From the NCBI GenBank assembly GCA_015062235.1, contig SUUZ01000004.1, forward strand, positions 17,497 to 81,496: DNA of 64,000 nt. The letters are read 5' to 3'. Positions 2,446-11,924 of this stretch are shown here, piece by piece. The position numbers and the translations under genes are program-made. A model generated the notes under the pieces. That model was not told where the DNA came from. It saw nothing but the letters and a program-made list of their open reading frames with translations, and did not search any database. Numbering within the stretch: position 1 is the stretch's first letter; each line of letters begins with the position of its first letter. Source of the DNA: Alphaproteobacteria bacterium (GTDB taxonomy: Bacteria; Pseudomonadota; Alphaproteobacteria; RF32; CAG-239).

Positions 2446-3882
2446 TTACTCGCTAATAACAAACCACAAAGGTTTAATAAATGACATTAATAATAAAAAG
2501 ACAATAAACATCATAAAAATAAAAAGACCTAAAGATATATCATTATCTTTACCTAATTGACATTCTTTGGTATCTGTCTTTAATCTAAACATTTCAGAAA
2601 TGAGTGTTGCAGCAACAATTGTGCAGCTAAGCATTAGAACAACTCCCATTTGAATATTGATGGTAAAAAGTTCAGATAATATCAAGAAATTATTGATAAA
2701 CATGGCGGACACAGGAAAACCTGCTGCGGCACAAGTTAAAAAAGAATATGCCAATGAAAGTCTTTTGGCTCGACATAAAAATCCTTTAGCATCTGAACCA
2801 TTTTGTTGTTCTTGATAATAAATATATCCTGATAAAACCTCTAGTGCACCAAAAACCATCAGAAAACTAAATAAAGCGTAGCCAATATTGAGCATTATAA
2901 GTTCATTTTGGCTGAATATTCCAAGTAAATACATAATATAGTACACTGTAACAAAAGCAAATATTTTGTATTGAGCTTCTTTATGGATAAAAGCTATTAA
3001 GGCAATAAACAACATTGTTACCGCACCAACAACATTTAACCAAACAAAATATTGTGATATCTCTAGCGGAATATGTCTAGGCCAAAACCTAATCAAACCA
3101 TAGATACCACTTAAGGGCAAAATAGATGAAGCTAAAAAAACTAATGGATTATGAATCTTGGAATTTATTGATGAAATCCAATAGTGAAAAGGCCAAATTG
3201 GAATACGTGATATAAAGCCAAAAGCTAAAGCGCTCCAAATATACCAACCAAAATTTTTGTGCCAAAGTATTTTGAATGACTTATCTAAACTTAAGCTTCC
3301 ATAATATTTATATATGAGTAAAATACCTGTAAATAGAATAAAAGCTCCGATTAAATTATAGATAAAAAATCCGCCTAATTTTTCTGGGCGTTTGAAGCCT
3401 CCAAACATTCCTATTATCATAAATAATGGTAACAGCATTGCTTCAAAAAATATAAAAAATGAAAAAATATCAGCCGAAACAAATAAACCTGTTGTCATAC
3501 TCAGGAACAAAAGTACGAACGCCATTAACGACTTTTGACCTTGTGATGTAGCTCGAACTAATACTATTCCCATTAATATTACTAAATGAACAGCCAATAT
3601 CATCATTAACGATAAATTATCGACCGCAAAAACAATATTGATATCAGGAACAGAAAGCCAATCAAATTTTTCAAATAGTTGTAATTTTAATCGTTTTTCA
3701 TCAACGAGCATAAACACACGCCAAATTAAAACCAGATTAGCAACTATGGTAAACAGTGCAACATTTGAGCTGTTGTGTCCCTGTGAATCTGCATTTTCTT
3801 TAGATGTTAAAACAAACAACATCCCAAGAAATGGCACACACACAATAAGTGATAATATTGCAAAAGGACTACTCATAAACAT
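2446..3882 (-). CDS. NuoM-like antiporter-type membrane subunit (complex I subunit M family)
   Basis: 478 aa. FFIFFEAMLLPLFMIIGMFGG matches the conserved NuoM/MrpD TM5 region (FFEAML.P....IG.WGG). Confidence 0.65.
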   Translation of the reverse strand: MFMSSPFAILSLIVCVPFLGMLFVLTSKENADSQGHNSSNVALFTIVANLVLIWRVFMLVDEKRLKLQLFEKFDWLSVPDINIVFAVDNLSLMMILAVHLVILMGIVLVRATSQGQKSLMAFVLLFLSMTTGLFVSADIFSFFIFFEAMLLPLFMIIGMFGGFKRPEKLGGFFIYNLIGAFILFTGILLIYKYYGSLSLDKSFKILWHKNFGWYIWSALAFGFISRIPIWPFHYWISSINSKIHNPLVFLASSILPLSGIYGLIRFWPRHIPLEISQYFVWLNVVGAVTMLFIALIAFIHKEAQYKIFAFVTVYYIMYLLGIFSQNELIMLNIGYALFSFLMVFGALEVLSGYIYYQEQQNGSDAKGFLCRAKRLSLAYSFLTCAAAGFPVSAMFINNFLILSELFTINIQMGVVLMLSCTIVAATLISEMFRLKTDTKECQLGKDNDISLGLFIFMMFIVFLLLMSFIKPLWFVISE

Positions 3883-5179
3883 AGCTCCCTAAATATGTTA
3901 GCATAATTACAAAACCTAAAACTATACTAATAAGACAGCTCCATTTTCCTGTTTCTTGTATTTTGTGTACGCTATTTACAATTAGTCTTGAACCATGAGA
4001 TATTGAAGCGATTATACTACGCTCTATTACAACGATATCAAAAACGAGCCATAAAATGCGTCCTAAAAATTTTAAAGGATTGATAAAGAATGTTTCGTAA
4101 AAATTTGATAAAAGATCATCACGTAATATATTTATTTTATTTAGTTTAGTTAAAAAGAAGATATTGTTTTCATCTTTTGAAAATTTGGCAATTAGAATAA
4201 AAATAAATGAAATAAGTAAAACAAAAATTGTTACTTTGGGTAATAAACTATATAAGTTATTTGTATCACTATAAATCATCAGTAACAAAAAAGCATTACT
4301 TGCCATAGCTAATGATATATTTTTTGATTTTATACTTTTGCTAAGCAAAATTCCACCCAAACCAATAGCAACGGATATAAAGCACCAATAAGTTATAATT
4401 AATGAGCTTATTGGAGAGGCATCTAACAATGGGCGCAATTTTGATACTAGAATAAATCCTGATAGTGGAACAGATAATAAAAGCATACTTAATAAGCGAT
4501 TATAAGAAACATTTTTCATTGCGTAATATTGGCCATTGAACAAAAAAAGCCCACATTTGCTAGCAATGCAAAATAGCAACAAACAAATAACTAAATCTTT
4601 ATGGTTACCATTCTTTATAAAAGGAGTAATGTTGTTTAAATCTATGGAATTTGTTGTACTATAAACAATGGCCAAAGCCATAAAAAGAGCCATTTCTGAT
4701 AAAAAATTGAAAATAAATATTTTCTTTTTAGCCGATATTATGTCTGGCATATAAAAGGTAATAATTGAAAACATTGAGCTAGCAAACATTAGTTGTAGAA
4801 AATCATTACTTGATACTAGTAAAATTAGGTTTGTAAAATTTAGAAGAAGCAGGGTGTTGAAATGCAATGAATGATATTCATCGTGATATGTGGTATTAAA
4901 TAAGATTAAATTTAATAAGATAATCAGTAGCCAAATATACATTTGGCTAATTTTTAGAGATGAGATAATACTAAAATTAGCATAAAGATTATCGTAAGTT
5001 AGCCAGTTGTAAATAAAGTTGGTATGATTGAAGGTATTTGTATTAGTTGCAAAAAAATAACAGATACAAGCCAAAATAGCAAGTAACCCAAAAGACCAAA
5101 TACGTCTGCGACGACCTTGAATAATAAGTATTGAGGCAGAGGCAATTACGAATAGAGCTATAAATAAATGTAGAACCAT
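3869..5179 (-). CDS. NuoL/MrpA-like antiporter-type membrane subunit, short and divergent (possibly degenerate)
   Basis: 436 aa (canonical NuoL is ~620-660). The C-terminus (FDIVVIERSI...HKIQETGKWS) resembles the NuoL/MnhA C-terminal motif FD..V.DG.VN......LQTG. The conserved GWEGVG region is replaced by ASSMFS. No nuoA-K upstream. Confidence 0.5.
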   Translation of the reverse strand: MVLHLFIALFVIASASILIIQGRRRRIWSFGLLAILACICYFFATNTNTFNHTNFIYNWLTYDNLYANFSIISSLKISQMYIWLLIILLNLILFNTTYHDEYHSLHFNTLLLLNFTNLILLVSSNDFLQLMFASSMFSIITFYMPDIISAKKKIFIFNFLSEMALFMALAIVYSTTNSIDLNNITPFIKNGNHKDLVICLLLFCIASKCGLFLFNGQYYAMKNVSYNRLLSMLLLSVPLSGFILVSKLRPLLDASPISSLIITYWCFISVAIGLGGILLSKSIKSKNISLAMASNAFLLLMIYSDTNNLYSLLPKVTIFVLLISFIFILIAKFSKDENNIFFLTKLNKINILRDDLLSNFYETFFINPLKFLGRILWLVFDIVVIERSIIASISHGSRLIVNSVHKIQETGKWSCLISIVLGFVIMLTYLGSYVYE

Positions 5180-5271
5180 AAAAAAACCTTATTAATTATC
5201 ACCGAAAATTAATATATAAAAAAAATAAGGGCTTTTAAAGCCCTTATTTAAAAGCTTTGTATAAGATAAAA

Positions 5272-5595
5272 TTAGCTTAATACAGCTTTAAGATCTCTTA
5301 CTAAACGCACAGGAACAATATATTCTCTTGCAACTTCGTCACCATCAATTTCTGCAACCAAAACTTCATCAACAGCTTTTAAGGGTTGACGTGCATTTTC
5401 ATTAATACCACCTAAAAAAACGGAGCTTTCACGACTTCTATATAGCAAAGCTGTTTCACCACCATCGTAAACAAAACGTGGATTTTCAGGTCCTCCTCGA
5501 CGTTGCTTAATGATTAGAAGGATTTCTCCTGCTCCATTTTGAAGAATTTCGTATGTGCCTTCGTTGGTTTCTGGCGTATTTGTAGTATTTTTCAT
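5272..5595 (-). CDS. hypothetical soluble protein (107 aa)
   Basis: Intact ORF with good coding character and no recognisable motif. Not hydrophobic, so not nuoK. Confidence 0.4.
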   Translation of the reverse strand: MKNTTNTPETNEGTYEILQNGAGEILLIIKQRRGGPENPRFVYDGGETALLYRSRESSVFLGGINENARQPLKAVDEVLVAEIDGDEVAREYIVPVRLVRDLKAVLS

Positions 5596-5708
5596 ATCTG
5601 CCTCATAGATTCTTTTAGCAATTTTGAGGCTAGTTTATCAGATAATTATTAACAAATATCTTACATTTTTATTTTTTTTAACTTTTTTTATTTTTTTGTT
5701 TTTTTTAG

Positions 5709-5737
5709 TTGACTTAATATTTTTTATCTTCTATACA
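5709..5737 (+). promoter_or_regulatory. sigma70-type promoter for tRNA-Lys (TTGACT-N17-TATACA)
   Basis: The -35 TTGACT (5709-5714) and -10 TATACA (5732-5737) are 17 nt apart. The tRNA starts ~20 nt downstream. Confidence 0.55.
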
Positions 5738-5757
5738 TAGCTTCGACCGATTGATAT

Positions 5758-5833
5758 GGGCTCGTAGCTCAGTCGGTAGAGCATTTGACTTTTAATCAAA
5801 GGGTCGGCGGTTCGAACCCGCCCGAGCTCACCA
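5758..5833 (+). tRNA. tRNA-Lys (anticodon UUU)
   Basis: 76-nt cloverleaf GGGCTCG TA GCTC AGTCGGTA GAGC A TTTGA CTTTTAA TCAAA GGGTC GGCGG TTCGAAC CCGCC CGAGCTC A CCA. It has 7-bp acceptor, D, anticodon and T arms, a TTCGAAC T-loop and an encoded CCA. Confidence 0.93.
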
Positions 5834-5835
5834 AT
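5817..5835 (+). repeat. 19-bp direct repeat copy 1 (tRNA-Lys 3' end, CCCGCCCGAGCTCACCAAT)
   Basis: Identical 19-mer recurs at 6043-6061. att-like duplication of the tRNA 3' end. Confidence 0.85.
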
Positions 5836-5837
5836 TT

Positions 5838-5868
5838 AACCCTAGGTTATCCTAGGGTTTTTCTTTAT
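5838..5868 (+). terminator. rho-independent terminator after tRNA-Lys
   Basis: AACCCTAGG-ttat-CCTAGGGTT hairpin followed by TTTTTCTTTATTT. Confidence 0.7.
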
Positions 5869-6042
5869 TTGGCGGGTTCCAACTAAAGTTCGTCTGGCTC
5901 ATAAGCTCAATAAATTTCGCTAACTCGCTGCGGTCACTCCTTTTGTAATATTCGCTACGCTTCGTTATTAACTCGCTTGCTCAATAACAAAATTTCGTCT
6001 GTCGTGAAAAATCGCTCCACTGGAGCAATTTTTTGCCTCCAG

Positions 6043-6061
6043 CCCGCCCGAGCTCACCAAT
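6043..6061 (+). repeat. 19-bp direct repeat copy 2 (duplicated tRNA-Lys 3' end; attR-like scar)
   Basis: CCCGCCCGAGCTCACCAAT is identical to 5817-5835. The 180-bp segment between the copies begins GGCGGGTTCCAAC (T-arm-like), so it looks like a displaced tRNA 3' half. Confidence 0.8.
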
Positions 6062-6064
6062 AAG

Positions 6065-6098
6065 AAATCCCCAATCTTAAAGGGCTGGGGATTTTTTA
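6065..6098. terminator. hairpin terminator (AAATCCCCA...TGGGGATTT + T-run), usable on both strands
   Basis: 9-bp perfect stem with a T-run on the plus strand. It lies just downstream of the stop of the minus-strand 639-aa gene. Confidence 0.55.
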
Positions 6099-6117
6099 TA
6101 TACGTATTTTTACATTA

Positions 6118-8037
6118 TTAATGAGATGCTTGTGATGCAGCTTTGTGCTTTTGAATGCTATTGTATAAAATTTTACTATAAATAGCTTTACCGTTTTCTT
6201 GGACTTTTTTAAATACATTCTTATATCTATCATCTTGCCCGCAAACTAATGTTTCTGTGTCTGCTAATAGCTCATTTCTTATTGAACCACTTACACCATT
6301 AACTATTGCTCTACCAGAAAATGCCAAAATAGCCTTTCCTTCTTTGGATAGTCCTTTTTGGTTTATATCATAACCAACAAAATTGTGTTGCTCAACCTCC
6401 TCACCCAAACTTGAACAAATAAAAACATTTCCTTGTTTTTCTGGGAAATAGCTTAGCTTCATTTCCCCCTGTGTATTGAGTTTTACAATTTCTGTATGAA
6501 AATTATTGTAATGACTAACCTCATCATCTTGTGCTGAACAAAATGAAATTAAGGTAGATTTTGAGACTCCTAAAGGACAATACGGGGCATGAGCAACACA
6601 AAGAAGTTGTTTTTGAATTTGTTGTTGCTCTTGTTTAGTATAGCCAAGTTCTTTCATTTTATCCATCATCATTTCTTCTAATTTTAAGAATGTATAAGCA
6701 CCATGACAATGCGCAACAATGTTTAGTTTCCTTATATTTTGCATTGCTTCTTCTTTTGAAATCTTTTTACCATCTTTATCTGATATGCGTGGTAAAAAAG
6801 CTACATCAAATATTTTTTTAATGTATCTAGGGTTTATTGTATCATCATTTAATGGAGATTTTGTTTTTATATTGCGCTTATATTTTTGCATAAGGCTGGT
6901 TCGAGCATTGTTTGCGTTAAAAACAATGCTTCGGTCATCCCAACTTCCAAAATCATATACAACAGAATATAATGCTACATCTTCATCCATTTGTTCTCTT
7001 TGAAGTAATTGTTCTAATGATTTTAGATAGCCGTTAGCTCTTTTGTCTGAGATTGTACCATCTCCTCCTAAAAATAAAATACAAGTTTCTGTTGGCTGTA
7101 TCTCATCTATATTTTTCCAACCCACAGGATTGTCCTCATCTTTTTCGACACGTTGCCCAATAGATATGCTACTGCATAGTTCTTCGTAATTTCCTAAAAT
7201 TCTATGAGCCAATTTTCCTGATTCTTTACTGTTATTAGGATTGGATAATCCTAAACGAACTATATCATCAATTTCATTTTGAAATTTTTCATGTGTTCGC
7301 ATACTTTCTAGTGATTTGTATGCAGATTTAAGAGTTTCTGCGTCGTTTTGCGAAGATAAAATATATTGTTTAATTATAGATAAACTATCTGGTATTTTAG
7401 TGGGAGAAACACTGCATATTTGGGATAAATTTTTATATAATGTAGAAAGTTGTGAAGAGTCTTTAGGAGTAGTTGTGGTGATGATTTTCCATATATCTTC
7501 AGATATTTCTGTTTTTTGTTGGTATATAGATGGTAGATTTTCCATCATCTTGTTTTCAATTGAAGGAAATAAGGATAAACTTTCATTTAGTATTTCTAGT
7601 GAAACATCCGAAGATGAAGCCATTATGATTGAGTTTAAAGCAGAAACATATCCATATTGATTATTTATATTTATATTTTGAGATGATTTTTTAATTTCCT
7701 CATATATCAGACCTGACAGCTCAGGACGAGATTTGAGTATATCGCTTGTACATCTTGCAATTAACCAATCGTTTCCTTGCGATTTAATTATATCAAAAGA
7801 ATCTTCAATCTCAGGCTGAGATAAATTGCTTATAATGGCTGCATATGTTGTACATAGACTTGGTCGCAAATCACTGGATTGCGCTACCTTGTCGTTACTT
7901 ATATGATAAAAAGCTGGGAGGTATAAAGATGAATCAGAAGGATGTTGATGTGTAAGCTCTTGTAAAGTTTTAAGGTAATTAGCAACATCTGAAAAACTAA
8001 ACTCTTTCTGATCTAATATTGCTTTTATTGTGTCCAT
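6118..8037 (-). CDS. large effector-like protein (639 aa): helical N-terminal region plus C-terminal putative alpha/beta-hydrolase-like domain with Cys nucleophile
   Basis: No housekeeping family recognised. The C-terminal half has ILFLGGDGT (HGGG-like oxyanion strand), NIVAHCHGAYT (small-x-Cys-x-small nucleophile elbow) and a later VAHAPY His. It sits next to the tRNA/att scar and has its own consensus promoter. Confidence 0.6.
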   Translation of the reverse strand: MDTIKAILDQKEFSFSDVANYLKTLQELTHQHPSDSSLYLPAFYHISNDKVAQSSDLRPSLCTTYAAIISNLSQPEIEDSFDIIKSQGNDWLIARCTSDILKSRPELSGLIYEEIKKSSQNININNQYGYVSALNSIIMASSSDVSLEILNESLSLFPSIENKMMENLPSIYQQKTEISEDIWKIITTTTPKDSSQLSTLYKNLSQICSVSPTKIPDSLSIIKQYILSSQNDAETLKSAYKSLESMRTHEKFQNEIDDIVRLGLSNPNNSKESGKLAHRILGNYEELCSSISIGQRVEKDEDNPVGWKNIDEIQPTETCILFLGGDGTISDKRANGYLKSLEQLLQREQMDEDVALYSVVYDFGSWDDRSIVFNANNARTSLMQKYKRNIKTKSPLNDDTINPRYIKKIFDVAFLPRISDKDGKKISKEEAMQNIRKLNIVAHCHGAYTFLKLEEMMMDKMKELGYTKQEQQQIQKQLLCVAHAPYCPLGVSKSTLISFCSAQDDEVSHYNNFHTEIVKLNTQGEMKLSYFPEKQGNVFICSSLGEEVEQHNFVGYDINQKGLSKEGKAILAFSGRAIVNGVSGSIRNELLADTETLVCGQDDRYKNVFKKVQENGKAIYSKILYNSIQKHKAASQASH

Positions 8038-8071
8038 ATTTCCCTCACAATGTTTTATTTTTATGAAGTAA

Positions 8072-8100
8072 ATTATAGCAAATCAATTGATTTTTATCAA
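8072..8100 (-). promoter_or_regulatory. consensus sigma70 promoter (TTGATA-N17-TATAAT) for the 639-aa gene
   Basis: On the minus strand, TTGATA aaaatcaattgatttgc TATAAT lies ~30 nt before the GAGGGAA SD and ATG at 8037. Confidence 0.6.
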
Positions 8101-8138
8101 CTGCTTTTTCAATGGGATGAAGCTTTGAAATTGAAATA

Positions 8139-10721
8139 TTATTTGGATTTTACTATTTCTAATCCACCATTTAAAACAATTATGTCAGCGCTATCGTTAT
8201 CGCCTATTTCGCCATTTAATATTTTGATAGCTAATTTGTTTTCAATATTGTTTTTTAATAGACGTTTTAGCGGACGTGCACCATAAATAGAATCATAACC
8301 ATTGTTTACAATCCAAACAAAAGCTGTATCATGAACATTAAGTTTTATATTATGTGTTTGAAGTCGCTTTTCAATAAGCTCTATTTGGATTTTTGCAATT
8401 TCTTTAATATTTGATTTATCAAGCTTGTGGAATATTGTAATTTCGTCAATTCGGTTAATGAATTCTGGACGAAACGATGCTTTAACAATATCCATAACTT
8501 GGGCTCGAATCTTTTTACCATCATCAGCACCAGTTGCATTGCTTAAAATTTCTGAGCCTAGATTTGATGTCATAATTATAAGCGTATTTTTAAAATCTAC
8601 TGTGCGACCTTTACCATCAGTTAATCGTCCATCATCTAGAACTTGTAGCAATATATTAAATACATCTGGATGAGCTTTTTCAATTTCATCAAATAAGATG
8701 ACTTGATATGGACGTCTCCTAACAGCTTCTGTTAAAAAACCTCCTTCATCATATCCAACATATCCTGGAGGCGAACCAATCAATCGGGCAACAGAATGTT
8801 TTTCCATATATTCTGACATATCAACTCGTAAAATAGCCCGTTCATCATTGAATAAAAATTCTGCTACAGCTTTACTTAATTCTGTTTTACCAACACCAGT
8901 GGGACCAAGAAACAGAAAAGATCCTATTGGTTGATTGGCGTCTGAAATACCTGCTCGAGAACGTCTAATTGCATTTGATATTGCAGAAATAGCTTCTTTT
9001 TGCCCAATAACACGTCTACTTAAAAAATCTTCCATTTTTAGAAGCTTTTCTCTTTCGCCGCCTAGCATCTTGTCAACAGGAATACCTGTACGTTTAGAAA
9101 CAATGGCTGCAATATTCTCTTCATCTACCGTTTCGCTAAAACTATTGTGTTTGTTTTTATCTTTATCTTCAGCCTTTTCTATTTTCTTTTCCAATTCGGG
9201 AATAATACTATATTGCAACTCCCCTGCTCGTTCCAGCATTCCTTCTCGTTTAGCTATTTCAACCTCATTACGTGCTTTATCTAGTTTGTCTTTTAGAACT
9301 GTGTAATTTGCTAAGCCTTGTTTGTCTTCACGCCAACGATCTTCTAGTCCTTTAGCTTTTGCTTCTAATCCTGAAATCTCATAATTTATAAGCTCTAGAC
9401 GTTCACGTGATTTACTGTCATTTTCTTTTTTTAGCCCTTCTCGTTCAATCTTAAGCTGTAAAATGCGCCTGTCTAACTCGTCAAGCTCTTCTGGTTTAGA
9501 ATCTATTGTCATTCTAAGGGCGCTTGCAGCTTCATCCATAAGATCAATAGCTTTGTCTGGAAGAAAACGGTCTGAAATATAACGATTAGATAGTGTTGCA
9601 GCAGCAATTAAGGCGCTATCTGCAATTTTAACACCATGATGCAATTCAAACTTTTCTTTTATTCCACGCAATATTGATATTGTATCTTCAACTGTTGGCT
9701 CGGCAATATAAATTTCTTGAAAACGTCGTGCTAAAGCAGCATCTTTTTCGACATATTTTTTATACTCATTAAGAGTTGTAGCTCCCATACAATGAAGTTC
9801 ACCTCTAGCTAATGCTGGCTTTAATAAGTTTGATGCATCTAAAGCTCCTTCCGTTGCTCCAGCTCCAACGAGAGTATGCATTTCATCAATAAATAAAATT
9901 ATTTCTCCATTTGATGCTTCTATATCTTTTAATACAGCTTTTAATCTTTCTTCAAATTCCCCCCTAAATTTAGCTCCAGCAATTAAAGCTCCTAAGTCAA
10001 GTGCTAATAGTCTCTTTCCTTTTAGACTTTCTGGAACATCATTATTTATAATTCTGATAGCCATTCCTTCAACAATAGCTGTTTTACCAACACCTGGCTC
10101 ACCAATAAGTAAAGGATTATTTTTAGTACGCCTAGAAAGCACTTGAATAGCTCGTCTAATTTCTTGTTCTCGTCCAATTACGGGGTCTATTTTTCCTTCT
10201 TTGGCTTTTGCAGTAATGTCTATTGTAAACTTTTTTAAGGCATCAAAATTATCTTCACTAGTCTCTGTTTCGGCTAAGCGCCCTTTACGGTATTCATTAA
10301 TTGCTTGATTAAGTTTAGCTGCATTTACTCCTGAACTAACCAAAATATCATAAGCTTCATTTCCAGCTGTCATTGATAAAGCTTGAAGCAATCTTTCTAT
10401 TGTAACAAATTTATCGCTAGATTTATCAGCTAATTTTTCAGCTTCCATCATTAAAGATGTAAATTCTTGACTCATCAATGTTTGAACGGAAGTTCCTGCA
10501 ACTGACGGTAACTTGGTAAAGGCATCTTCTAGTTTTGAACGTATCTGTGTTATACTTCCTCCTGATTTAACAATCAAATCAAGCACAAGTTCATATTTTC
10601 CATCAAGCAGAACTTTTAATAAGTGTAATGGGGTAATATACTGATTTTTATTAGCTGCGGCCAAATTGACTACTGCTTCTATAACTTCTTTTGATTTATT
10701 GGTAAGTTTTTCAAAATCCAT
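8139..10721 (-). CDS. clpB: ATP-dependent chaperone ClpB
   Basis: 860 aa with two AAA+ modules ([16 protein letters not shown] Walker A), a coiled-coil M-domain between them, and an N-terminus [17 protein letters not shown] typical of ClpB. Confidence 0.95.
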
Positions 10722-10790: not shown

Positions 10791-11924
10791 TTATTTTTTC
10801 AACAAATTAATAACTACGATATCAGATGGTGCAAATAAGCGCATTTGTGGTCCCCATGCTCCAGCCCCTCTTGATACATACATATCAATACCATTAACTT
10901 TATATTTGCCAGCTAGATAATCATTGGCTTGTTTTACTAACCAATGAAATGGAAATATCTGTCCTCCATGAGTATGACCAGCCAAAACTAAATCCACAAT
11001 ACCATCACTTAGACTATTGATAATAATTGGTGTATGTGAAAGCAAAACTTTGAAATCTTCCTTCTTGGAGGGATTAAGTGTTCGCCAAAAATTGACTCGT
11101 TCAAACATTGTATTCAAATCGGGAATTCCAGCAATAAATACATTTGTATTATTTATATGAACACCACCATTAAATAAAAACTTTAGCCCTAAAGAATCTA
11201 AAACACGCTTTGCGGCATAAACGTCATTATAAAATTCATGATTGCCCATAATACTGTATGTACCATAAGGAGCGCTAATTTCCTTTAGCATATTAAGTTG
11301 CTCTTCAATTAGAAAAACATTATCATCTATTGTATCACCTGTTAAAACAACAACATCGGGATTAAGCATATTAACTTGTTCAACTAATTGACGTAATCTT
11401 GTTGTTGATGTAGCCCGTGTAATGTGAAGATCACTTAACTGAATAATTCTTAGATTTGAATTTATTTTATCTGAATATATAAACTCTTCATGAACTTGAG
11501 GTAGTTTATTTCCTTCATATATGGCATAAGCGCAAACCATTATACTAAATAAAATTACGATAAAGTTTGCTTTACTTAAAAGGGATACATTCTTAGGATC
11601 AATATGCCAACCATCGTTTTTTAAAAGTTTTGCAATGCCAAAAATTGTATACCAAACAATATCTCGCATCATAATAACGATGAATAAGATAAATACAAAG
11701 CCCATTAAATAATAAAGACCATTTGCAACAATAGGATATGCTTCTGCATTTAGGATGTTGTACTTACGGATAAAACCGACAATCAAGAATGCAAACCATC
11801 CTAAAACAACTACTGTACCAACTATCAATTTATAGACGAGTTTCAAATCAGTATAACCGACAAGTGTCCTGATAGTAATTATAGAACAAGCTACTGCGAC
11901 AATTAATCCTGCAAGAAAAAACAC
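10791..11924 (-). CDS. membrane-anchored calcineurin-like metallophosphoesterase
   Basis: N-terminal TM helices, then LSDLHI, GDTIDD, GNHEFY and GHTHGG metallophosphoesterase motifs. Confidence 0.8.
   Translation of the reverse strand: MFFLAGLIVAVACSIITIRTLVGYTDLKLVYKLIVGTVVVLGWFAFLIVGFIRKYNILNAEAYPIVANGLYYLMGFVFILFIVIMMRDIVWYTIFGIAKLLKNDGWHIDPKNVSLLSKANFIVILFSIMVCAYAIYEGNKLPQVHEEFIYSDKINSNLRIIQLSDLHITRATSTTRLRQLVEQVNMLNPDVVVLTGDTIDDNVFLIEEQLNMLKEISAPYGTYSIMGNHEFYNDVYAAKRVLDSLGLKFLFNGGVHINNTNVFIAGIPDLNTMFERVNFWRTLNPSKKEDFKVLLSHTPIIINSLSDGIVDLVLAGHTHGGQIFPFHWLVKQANDYLAGKYKVNGIDMYVSRGAGAWGPQMRLFAPSDIVVINLLKK

Follow-up and report, generated by a model that had tools for sequence, protein, structure and literature searches.

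What does it mean that a tRNA-Lys gene is followed, a little over 200 bp downstream, by a second copy of its own 3' end, and is the gene lying beyond that copy part of the same event? The question is posed by a 64,000-nucleotide (nt) stretch of DNA from an Alphaproteobacteria bacterium (assembly GCA_015062235.1, contig SUUZ01000004.1, positions 17,497 to 81,496 of the forward strand; hereafter the window). In it an earlier note, made from the letters alone, had seen an att-like scar beside a gene for a 639-amino-acid (aa) hydrolase-like protein, its possible cargo. On balance we favour another reading: positions 5836-6061 would be one copy of a small (about 200-240 bp), gene-less, non-autonomous element that inserts at tRNA 3' ends, and the 639-aa gene would be a resident neighbour encoding a HEAT-like domain joined to a Cys-type alpha/beta hydrolase. 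Clean empty and filled alleles, divergence exactly at the CCA, a terminator carried by the unit itself and tandem growth together argue for insertion at the tRNA tail, rather than for a conserved leader or a one-off scar.

A repeated tRNA tail bounds a 226-bp unit

The only tRNA gene of the window, tRNA-Lys(UUU), was called by ARAGORN at 5758-5833 on the + strand and scores 74.2 bits against the Rfam tRNA family. Its tail is repeated: the 19-mer CCCGCCCGAGCTCACCAAT, made of the final 17 nt of the tRNA followed by AT, occurs in exact copies at 5817-5835 and 6043-6061, as the earlier note had reported. No third site was found in the window at up to three mismatches, and none of 100 shuffles gave a match. 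When two mismatches are allowed the similarity reaches 24 nt, its weaker part extending 5 nt into the T-loop. The unit that ends with the second copy (5836-6061, 226 bp) contains no open reading frame (ORF); a terminator comes first, followed by a fragment of the T-arm in inverted orientation, a non-coding body with structure and, at the end, the tRNA tail. The features of this part of the locus are as follows.

5709..5738, + strand: putative promoter TTGACT-N17-TATACA 5' of tRNA-Lys, from reading of the sequence
5758..5833, + strand: tRNA-Lys, anticodon UUU (ARAGORN, Rfam), intact, CCA encoded
5817..5835, + strand: left direct repeat, comprising the 3' strands of T-stem and acceptor, CCA and AT
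5838..5866, + strand: terminator T1, a hairpin (5838-5859) with a T-run, from the terminator scan
5871..5883, no strand assigned: inverted copy of the T-loop and T-stem (GGCGGGTTCCAAC, compared with GTTCGAACCCGCC)
5888..6042, + strand: non-coding body B, about 155 nt (nhmmer homologues, covariation)
6043..6061, + strand: right direct repeat, an orphan tRNA-Lys tail, with a C-to-T change in contig L087
6065..6094, no strand assigned: T2, a hairpin with 14-nt arms and a T-run, spanning 6060-6099 in the interval between the unit and the 3' end of the 639-aa gene

T1 belongs to the unit, since a second T1 stands at the start of the second unit in the same-species contig L087 (contigs and loci are designated by L numbers). 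The T-arm-like segment noticed earlier after the first repeat is an inverted copy of tRNA sequence: GGCGGGTTCCAAC (5871-5883) matches, at 12 of 13 positions, the T-loop and T-stem 3' strand at 5810-5822. This copy is an exact 13-mer in a sister species (species B) and a 12-mer in L107, and analogous inverted tRNA-derived segments occur in units at tRNA-Trp, tRNA-Gly and tRNA-Met. The loop of T2 exceeds the scanner's limit, and this hairpin came from an inverted-repeat search. T2 is probably the original terminator of the tRNA, usable in both directions; it is not present after the orthologous hydrolase gene in other species. The two terminators of the earlier note are therefore both there, T1 as part of the inserted DNA and T2 as old flank. 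The motif upstream of the tRNA was unlisted by the promoter scanner because its -10 element ends in A, and it is kept in related species.

The unit varies in copy number between strains

Same-species contigs were retrieved by exact-protein look-up. Five of them (L086, L088 and L160-L162) share the one-unit layout of the window, whereas L087 is longer by 226 bp and carries two tandem units (each running from just after one CCA to the next), each led by its own T1. A metagenome scan with the 3' 49-mer of the tRNA gave 36 human-gut loci. Upstream, the synteny of a 107-aa ORF with tRNA-Lys is kept across species (aa identities of 100, 89, 80, 69 and 49%); downstream, the sequences diverge directly after the CCA in every species, and often between strains as well.

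In species B, a homologous unit of 235-240 bp is present in zero (L117), one (L104) or three copies (L123), and its repeat runs through the terminator (about 60 nt). In a further species, C, a 198-bp unit is found in L090, L118 and L119, and in the empty alleles L109, L102 and L120 the tRNA runs straight into exactly the sequence found 3' of the right repeat in the filled alleles. Species B and C are thus polymorphic for presence or absence of the unit, with breakpoints exactly at the repeat. The comparison of strains that the earlier note had proposed accordingly revealed zero to three units at tRNA-Lys, and the segment is not the invariant feature that would have spoken for a conserved small RNA (sRNA) or leader; indeed, this range of copy numbers argues against an essential RNA. 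Near-identical tandem copies at tRNA-Lys (two in L087, three in L123) and in two further loci (two in L074, three in L076) indicate recent amplification.

Similar units lie behind other tRNA genes

Every tRNA in the loci fetched through the hydrolase gene was scanned for a downstream copy of its own tail. Counting the window, 10 of 43 tRNAs have one: tRNA-Phe (L035-L037), Trp (L074, twice; L072), Gly (L010), Met (L048 and L055, twice each) and Arg (L059) are represented besides Lys. In short units, which measure about 160-240 bp across loci, the repeats are 17-21 nt long and start with the last bases of the T-loop; in four independent cases (Trp, Gly and both Met) the repeat is exactly 19 nt, AAT plus the rest. 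At the Lys, Phe, Trp, Gly, Met and Arg loci alike, the insert lies between direct repeats of the tRNA 3' end, and the tRNA itself is intact. The repeat is hence of the tRNA-3'-end type that bounds insertions, as the earlier note held; its idea of a scar does not survive in the same form, as the insert is not just the remnant of one decayed island but a recurrent, copy-variable unit found on at least five other tRNA species.

The complete units follow one plan: tRNA tail, unit-borne terminator, an imperfect inverted copy of the T-arm or 3' third of the local tRNA, a body, and a perfect tail. In L074, for instance, the inverted copy GGGGCGGTTGAGGAGAACTCACGAC compares with GGGGCAGTAAGATTCGAACTCACGAC, the reverse complement of tRNA-Trp. 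It is always the tail of the local tRNA itself that flanks a complete unit. A second body family, G, occupies units at Trp, Gly and Met, with a partial copy after tRNA-Pro in L017 and three tandem copies in L076, and a third, H, is found at Met. Mixed arrays also exist, G followed by H in L048 and H followed by a decayed G with a shortened repeat in L055; the tRNA-distal insert is the more decayed one. These arrays look like successive insertion beside the tRNA, older inserts being displaced outward. In L072 (2242-6000), tRNA-Trp is followed by 3.3 kb of DNA bearing an N6_Mtase + Methylase_S gene, then by a partial tail plus terminator, a unit of type G, a tail repeat of 14 nt and finally a hydrolase paralogue. 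Inserts are stacked at this site, with defence-type cargo among them and no integrase. In L111, L094, L112, L098 and L101 the left part of the unit runs on into longer, different DNA, and no recombinase was found in these larger elements.

Several further observations concern the DNA around these tRNAs. In a sister species (L111, 2753-3952, - strand), a 399-aa protein containing a ubiquitin domain of eukaryote type (PF00240, E 2.9e-29) is encoded downstream of tRNA-Lys, in DNA that varies between strains and beside two helix-turn-helix (HTH) genes. In species-C strains, differing ORFs of 1400-2100 aa converge on tRNA-Lys. L092 carries a gene for an RTX-repeat protein (2771-8989, - strand; HemolysinCabind E 1.5e-116), with a GNAT acetyltransferase gene between it and the tRNA. 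In L096 and L124, the first ORF downstream of tRNA-Lys encodes an IS3-family-like transposase (HTH plus ...FHSDQGTQYTS, by eye), followed in L096 by a cytosine methyltransferase-like ORF. Finally, L048 (8039-8279) matches the Rfam family WsnRNA46 (Wolbachia sRNA 46) on both strands; the score, about 51 bits, falls short of the gathering score of 65.3, and the sequence is probably a palindromic repeat.

Body B is conserved and structured

Homologues of body B were detected with nhmmer at tRNA-Lys in species B and L107, at tRNA-Phe in L035-L037 and adjoining tRNA-Glu in L019. Its orientation relative to the tRNA is reversed in the species-C and Phe units. A consensus of seven sequences (RNAalifold) contains two helices, and the parts of the body are as follows.

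5926-5939: conserved CGCTGCGGTCACTC
5940-5946 with 5987-5993: long-range helix of 7 bp
5993-6006: conserved unpaired stretch (TTTCGTCTGTCGTG / ACTTCGCCTGTCGT), 5' of the hairpin
6014-6026: hairpin, followed by a T-run to 6034
6035-6042: 3' end, GCCTCCAG

Both helices covary, with both-sided changes in 12 of 21 pairs (UUUUG/CAAAA, UUUGG/CCAAA, GUCUUG/CAAGAC), the structure having been derived from the same alignment that was used for covariation. Standard pairs fill 84% of the pair cells, compared with 42-50% when the partners are slid, and none of 500 shuffles scored as high. The promoter scan listed no sigma-70-like promoter upstream of B in the window, and the covariance models of Rfam 15 matched only tRNAs, neither the 226-bp unit nor any other unit. 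A small ORF in the body was rejected on inspection, as no start or frame is conserved. Body B may be, or contain, a small structured RNA; it may equally be a recombination accessory site or another structured DNA site. Two unannotated conserved non-coding modules are in any case flagged by this analysis.

How the units may reach and leave tRNA tails

Mini-elements that are non-autonomous and mobilised in trans offer the reading that we favour, because the cis-mobilizable element (CIME) is the nearest described concept and partial-tRNA scars provide a second parallel. Like a CIME, the unit has no integrase or transfer genes of its own: it is without an ORF and its neighbours are housekeeping genes. 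Site-specific recombination would insert the unit into the segment of the tRNA gene that runs from the T-loop to the CCA. The tRNA would stay intact because a second copy of this segment bounds the unit on the right, and the unit would supply it with T1, the inverted T-arm-like segment and the structured body, the old tail and the old terminator T2 being pushed downstream. The recombinase would be encoded elsewhere and act in trans, making the unit a miniature equivalent of a CIME, and copy number would shift by repeated insertion or by unequal crossing-over between repeats.

Several observations weigh against this proposal. No integrase or transposase was seen beside the units in about 160 loci, apart from the unrelated IS3-type genes of L096 and L124, and scans of IMG/VR for unit and tail patterns found no integrase-bearing parent, only chance hits or host DNA. 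A classical attP, with its single fixed core, predicts neither that one body should be found with the tails of different tRNAs nor that body B should be inverted relative to the tRNA in some units, yet both are seen. The match to the local tail, together with both orientations of B, is a better fit to a process that duplicates its target on insertion. Where the repeat takes in the terminator (60-80 nt), as it does in some cases, gain and loss can be explained by homologous recombination alone. Within the window's own species only one or two copies were seen, and no empty allele. As to the neighbouring gene, Pfam yields only Obc1_C (PF21498) at 20.4-21.6 bits, below the 27-bit gathering threshold.

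The observations on tails and orientation lead to a variant that we hold to be the less likely, namely that the units form an undescribed class of miniature mobile elements for tRNA 3' ends, combining a structured module (B or G) with an inverted T-arm mimic and acquiring the local tail. Units that take the tail of whichever tRNA they enter would imply an insertion unlike classical attP x attB. A staggered cut anchored in the T-loop might duplicate the tail, or a folded single strand might imitate the tRNA-gene duplex, and the result would be a stack resembling a CRISPR array, with inserts separated by tRNA tails. The scar of the earlier note is better described as one of a family of miniature, repeat-flanked, structured units on tRNA tails.

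Transposition with target duplication is a related possibility, and a rather doubtful one. Here a trans-acting enzyme would read the T-arm palindrome, cut in the T-loop and after the CCA, and leave a 17-21-bp repeat upon fill-in, much as casposases do or CRISPR Cas1 at the leader-repeat junction; alternatively, the folded single strand of the unit would mimic the tRNA-gene duplex. Such a process explains perfectly matching local tails within one body family, the uniform start in the T-loop, the growth of arrays from the tRNA-proximal side and both body orientations, and the T-arm of the local tRNA is present in each unit as an inverted copy that could pair with the tail. In A. boonei, the casposase is likewise guided by the T-psi-C-loop segment of tRNA-Pro, and its insertion duplicates 15 bp (PMC5137440). 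Target duplication remains a rival only, because no Cas1-solo, PolB or other transposase was seen and the ends of the units bear no clear terminal inverted repeats. Moreover, T1 stays next to the tRNA even where B is inverted, some repeats run on through the terminator, and to our knowledge a 17-21-bp duplication lying wholly within a tRNA has no precedent.

We give about the same low weight to an account without any mobile element, in which body B would be a resident sRNA that has a terminator of its own, and local tandem duplication, by slippage or unequal crossing-over, would have caught the tRNA tail. The two covarying helices, the 3' end resembling a Rho-independent terminator and the conserved unpaired motif would suit an sRNA; the 60-80-nt repeats of some species permit homologous recombination; and in L019 body B adjoins tRNA-Glu with a shared terminator, no flanking repeat being detected by eye. 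Such duplication is harder to reconcile with presence and absence within species at breakpoints exactly at the tRNA tail, with the uniform start of the repeat in the T-loop, or with one body flanked by different tRNA tails, always the local one, and the missing promoter and Rfam family do not favour an sRNA either.

Still less probable is a static scar, that is, one large tRNA-Lys island decayed to about 210 bp, with attL and attR left behind, nothing active and the 639-aa gene as leftover cargo. The tRNA-tail repeats around a unit without an integrase would fit such a history, as would the five loci in which longer DNA adjoins the left part of the unit; the near-identical tandems, the recurrence of the same short architecture on many tRNAs and species with conserved, covarying bodies, and the position of the 639-aa gene outside the repeats, with host-like G+C, all point away from it.

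Other candidates were rejected: a permuted two-piece transfer-messenger RNA (tmRNA) or tRNA-like RNA (ARAGORN called no tmRNA and Rfam gave nothing); a CRISPR RNA-like "homing spacer" of a CRISPR-associated transposon (on inspection there is no constant repeat, because the sequence 5' of the tail differs with body orientation); and a phage or plasmid origin of the units (the IMG/VR pattern scans gave no hit or chance, high-G+C hits). The IMG/VR contig L164 is host-like and not a prophage, its tRNA-Lys flank matching strains with the GNAT enzyme and giant RTX protein.

If the units are mobile, tRNA genes are hotspots of insertion and variation in reduced-genome gut Alphaproteobacteria that apparently lack the usual integrase-bearing islands, and the units would offer a tractable model of tRNA-tail targeting at the 200-bp scale.

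The neighbouring gene encodes a predicted Cys-type hydrolase

The 639-aa ORF (6118-8037, - strand) lies beyond the right repeat. It is a real ORF, as had been supposed, but it converges on tRNA-Lys instead of following it. Its promoter and domains are located as follows.

8072..8100, - strand: promoter-like TTGATA-N17-(TG)TATAAT (scan, 11 of 12 matches, TG extension)
7177..8037, - strand: residues 1-287, predicted all-helical HEAT/ARM-like solenoid (AlphaFold, Foldseek)
6118..7176, - strand: residues 288-639 and stop, predicted alpha/beta-hydrolase domain (domain model, Foldseek)
6706-6708, 6526-6528 and 6385-6387: putative catalytic codons of Cys444, Asp504 and His551

The promoter noted earlier was thus found at 8100-8072, and the two motifs that had suggested a hydrolase are residues 319-326 (ILFLGGDG) and 439-449 (NIVAHCHGAYT). 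A full-length AlphaFold model, built with a 60-sequence alignment, has a mean predicted local distance difference test score (pLDDT) of 95.2, and a separate model of the C-domain one of 96. With the full-length model, Foldseek against the PDB returned Obc1 first, then importin-beta, CAND1, PP2A-A and other HEAT/ARM solenoids on the N-terminal region; the C-domain gave Obc1 (5IKY/5IKZ), then lipases, Lp-PLA2, esterases, PETase and dienelactone hydrolase. In the models the C-terminal half accordingly takes the fold of an alpha/beta hydrolase, and its nucleophile elbow bears a Cys, as the earlier note had proposed: the elbow A442-H-C444-H-G446 links strand 438-443 to helix 445-464, and G324-G325 form an oxyanion-type loop, G325 lying in the LGGDG loop after strand 319-323. 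C444, H443, H551 and G325 are conserved in all 60 sequences and D504 in 58. C444, H551 and D504 are the probable catalytic triad, occurring in the canonical order Cys, Asp, His, each after the expected strand. The predicted activity is likely that of an acyl, ester or thioester hydrolase or transferase, and the solenoid would probably hold a partner, probably a protein.

The family is large and narrowly distributed. In a library clustered at 50% identity it comprises 814 representatives at E <= 1e-3; a word-indexed profile search gave 215 proteins, and all those with a source name come from gut Alphaproteobacteria. Homologues of the 639-aa protein occur only in metagenome-assembled genomes of uncultured gut or rumen "Alphaproteobacteria bacterium", some labelled Azospirillum sp., Rhodospirillales or Ca. 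Enterousia. Weak Pfam hits to Obc1_C cover the nucleophile region in 22 of 55 members, and a sequence search of the PDB with the catalytic domain gave no match. Neither PADLOC nor PHROGs matched the hydrolase, and a defence-system or phage protein family was rejected; tblastn against plasmid and phage collections likewise returned nothing. The catalytic domain is also found alone (paralogues of about 380 aa) or fused to ankyrin repeats (P0186, P0193, P0165). Separately, a giant protein of 6724 aa, P0241, has 12 stretches matching the N-terminal helical domain. The protein is thus new and confined to this clade, a predicted alpha/beta hydrolase of the Cys type joined to a HEAT-like partner domain. 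By eye, its N-terminus (MDTIKAILDQ...) shows no obvious signal peptide. For an effector, the HEAT-like domain, the ankyrin fusions of relatives and the tRNA-proximal locations are suggestive only.

Position, composition and distribution of this gene lend no support to the proposal that it is cargo: it lies outside the bounded segment, beyond the right repeat, has the G+C of its housekeeping neighbours (0.29-0.34, like the flanks, with no anomaly of composition; regional G+C about 0.31) and belongs to a family found throughout the clade. Orthologues at 84% and 64% identity stand in other, tRNA-free contexts. Still, a tRNA of at least 10 species in all lies within 1.5 kb in 28 of 80 genomic loci of the family, an estimate of enrichment that is rough, these loci having been fetched through the hydrolase gene and being phylogenetically non-independent. 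In L059 (895-3296), two tandem paralogues with the C-domain only stand beside tRNA-Arg(ACG), and an exact 30-nt repeat of the T-arm and tail of this tRNA (about 80 nt with the terminator) stands on either side of the first. A paralogue follows the unit stack in L072 and L074-L076, the stack being headed by tRNA-Trp in L072, L074 and L075. In L021 (around 7960-8010), an orphan fragment resembling a tRNA 3' end (...GTTCGAGATTTATCTCATTGGGCCCACCA) and followed by a terminator is convergent with an 82%-identical orthologue, and neither ARAGORN nor Rfam calls a tRNA there. The hydrolase family clearly tends to occupy variable sites near tRNAs. This tendency fits horizontal shuffling and is no proof of it for the copy in the window. 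The family thereby flagged, with HEAT-like or ankyrin partner domains and repeatedly beside tRNA genes, may have a host or eukaryotic protein as its target.

The locus at large is a housekeeping one, with Proton_antipo_M-type membrane subunits and the 107-aa ORF on one side and, on the other, ClpB, a metallophosphoesterase, DUF4167, PrmC, a sigma-70-family factor, a class II aminoacyl-tRNA synthetase, phosphoglycerate kinase (PGK) and glyceraldehyde-3-phosphate dehydrogenase (GAPDH). No integrase was found among the genes examined near the locus, in agreement with the earlier note. The metallophosphoesterase gene beside ClpB (10791-11924, - strand) has a weak PADLOC hit (PDC-S10, E 5.8e-5). 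A 436-aa membrane protein without a Pfam match (3869-5179, - strand) is only 82% identical in the same-species contig L087, whose ClpB and 639-aa genes are at least 99.8% identical to those of the window; its gene is locally hypervariable or recombined.

Comparison with known systems

Elements that lack integration genes but possess attL and attR, and that accrete in tandem at tRNA genes, are established (PMC5704250). The CIMEs described with the integrative and conjugative or mobilizable elements of Streptococcus (PMC5704250) share with our units the attL and attR at a tRNA 3' end, the lack of integration genes, the tandem arrangement with other inserts and the intact tRNA. The units differ in being 160-240 bp long and devoid of protein genes, in their stereotyped architecture, in the many tRNA species concerned, and in that no parent or integrase was identified.

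Partial-tRNA scars and tandem junctions are also known from tRNA-seeded islands of the tycheposon type (bioRxiv 10.1101/2020.12.28.424599), and ssrA-tail repeats from the islands of Dehalococcoides (PMC3146451). Both resemble the present case in that tRNA or tmRNA 3' ends of streamlined genomes seed variable islands and repeated partial tRNAs mark successive insertions. The elements in those islands encode tyrosine recombinases and hold cargo measured in kilobases, whereas the inserts described here are mostly miniature and gene-less.

With the casposon at tRNA-Pro and with miniature inverted-repeat transposable elements, the units share direct repeats of fixed length, and they would also share a T-psi-C-loop palindrome as landmark and the mobilisation of mini-elements in trans. 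The casposon differs by a 15-bp duplication that lies mostly downstream of the tRNA, by its terminal inverted repeats and by its Cas1 and PolB genes, none of which was seen for the units.

For the hydrolase, the comparison is structural. The nucleophile of Obc1 is a Ser, where the 639-aa protein has Cys. The C-domain of Obc1 (PDB 5IKY/5IKZ; PF21498) is nevertheless the best structural match to the hydrolase domain (Foldseek E 1e-7, TM-score 0.52), though only a distant relative at about 12% identity, and the 639-aa protein has a HEAT-like solenoid instead of the citrate-synthase-like N-domain. Dienelactone hydrolase and the polyhydroxyalkanoate synthase PhaC resemble it in the alpha/beta fold, the Cys on the elbow and the Cys-His-Asp order. 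No relationship to either was detected at the level of sequence, and the A-H-C-H-G elbow, with His on both sides of the Cys, is unusual.

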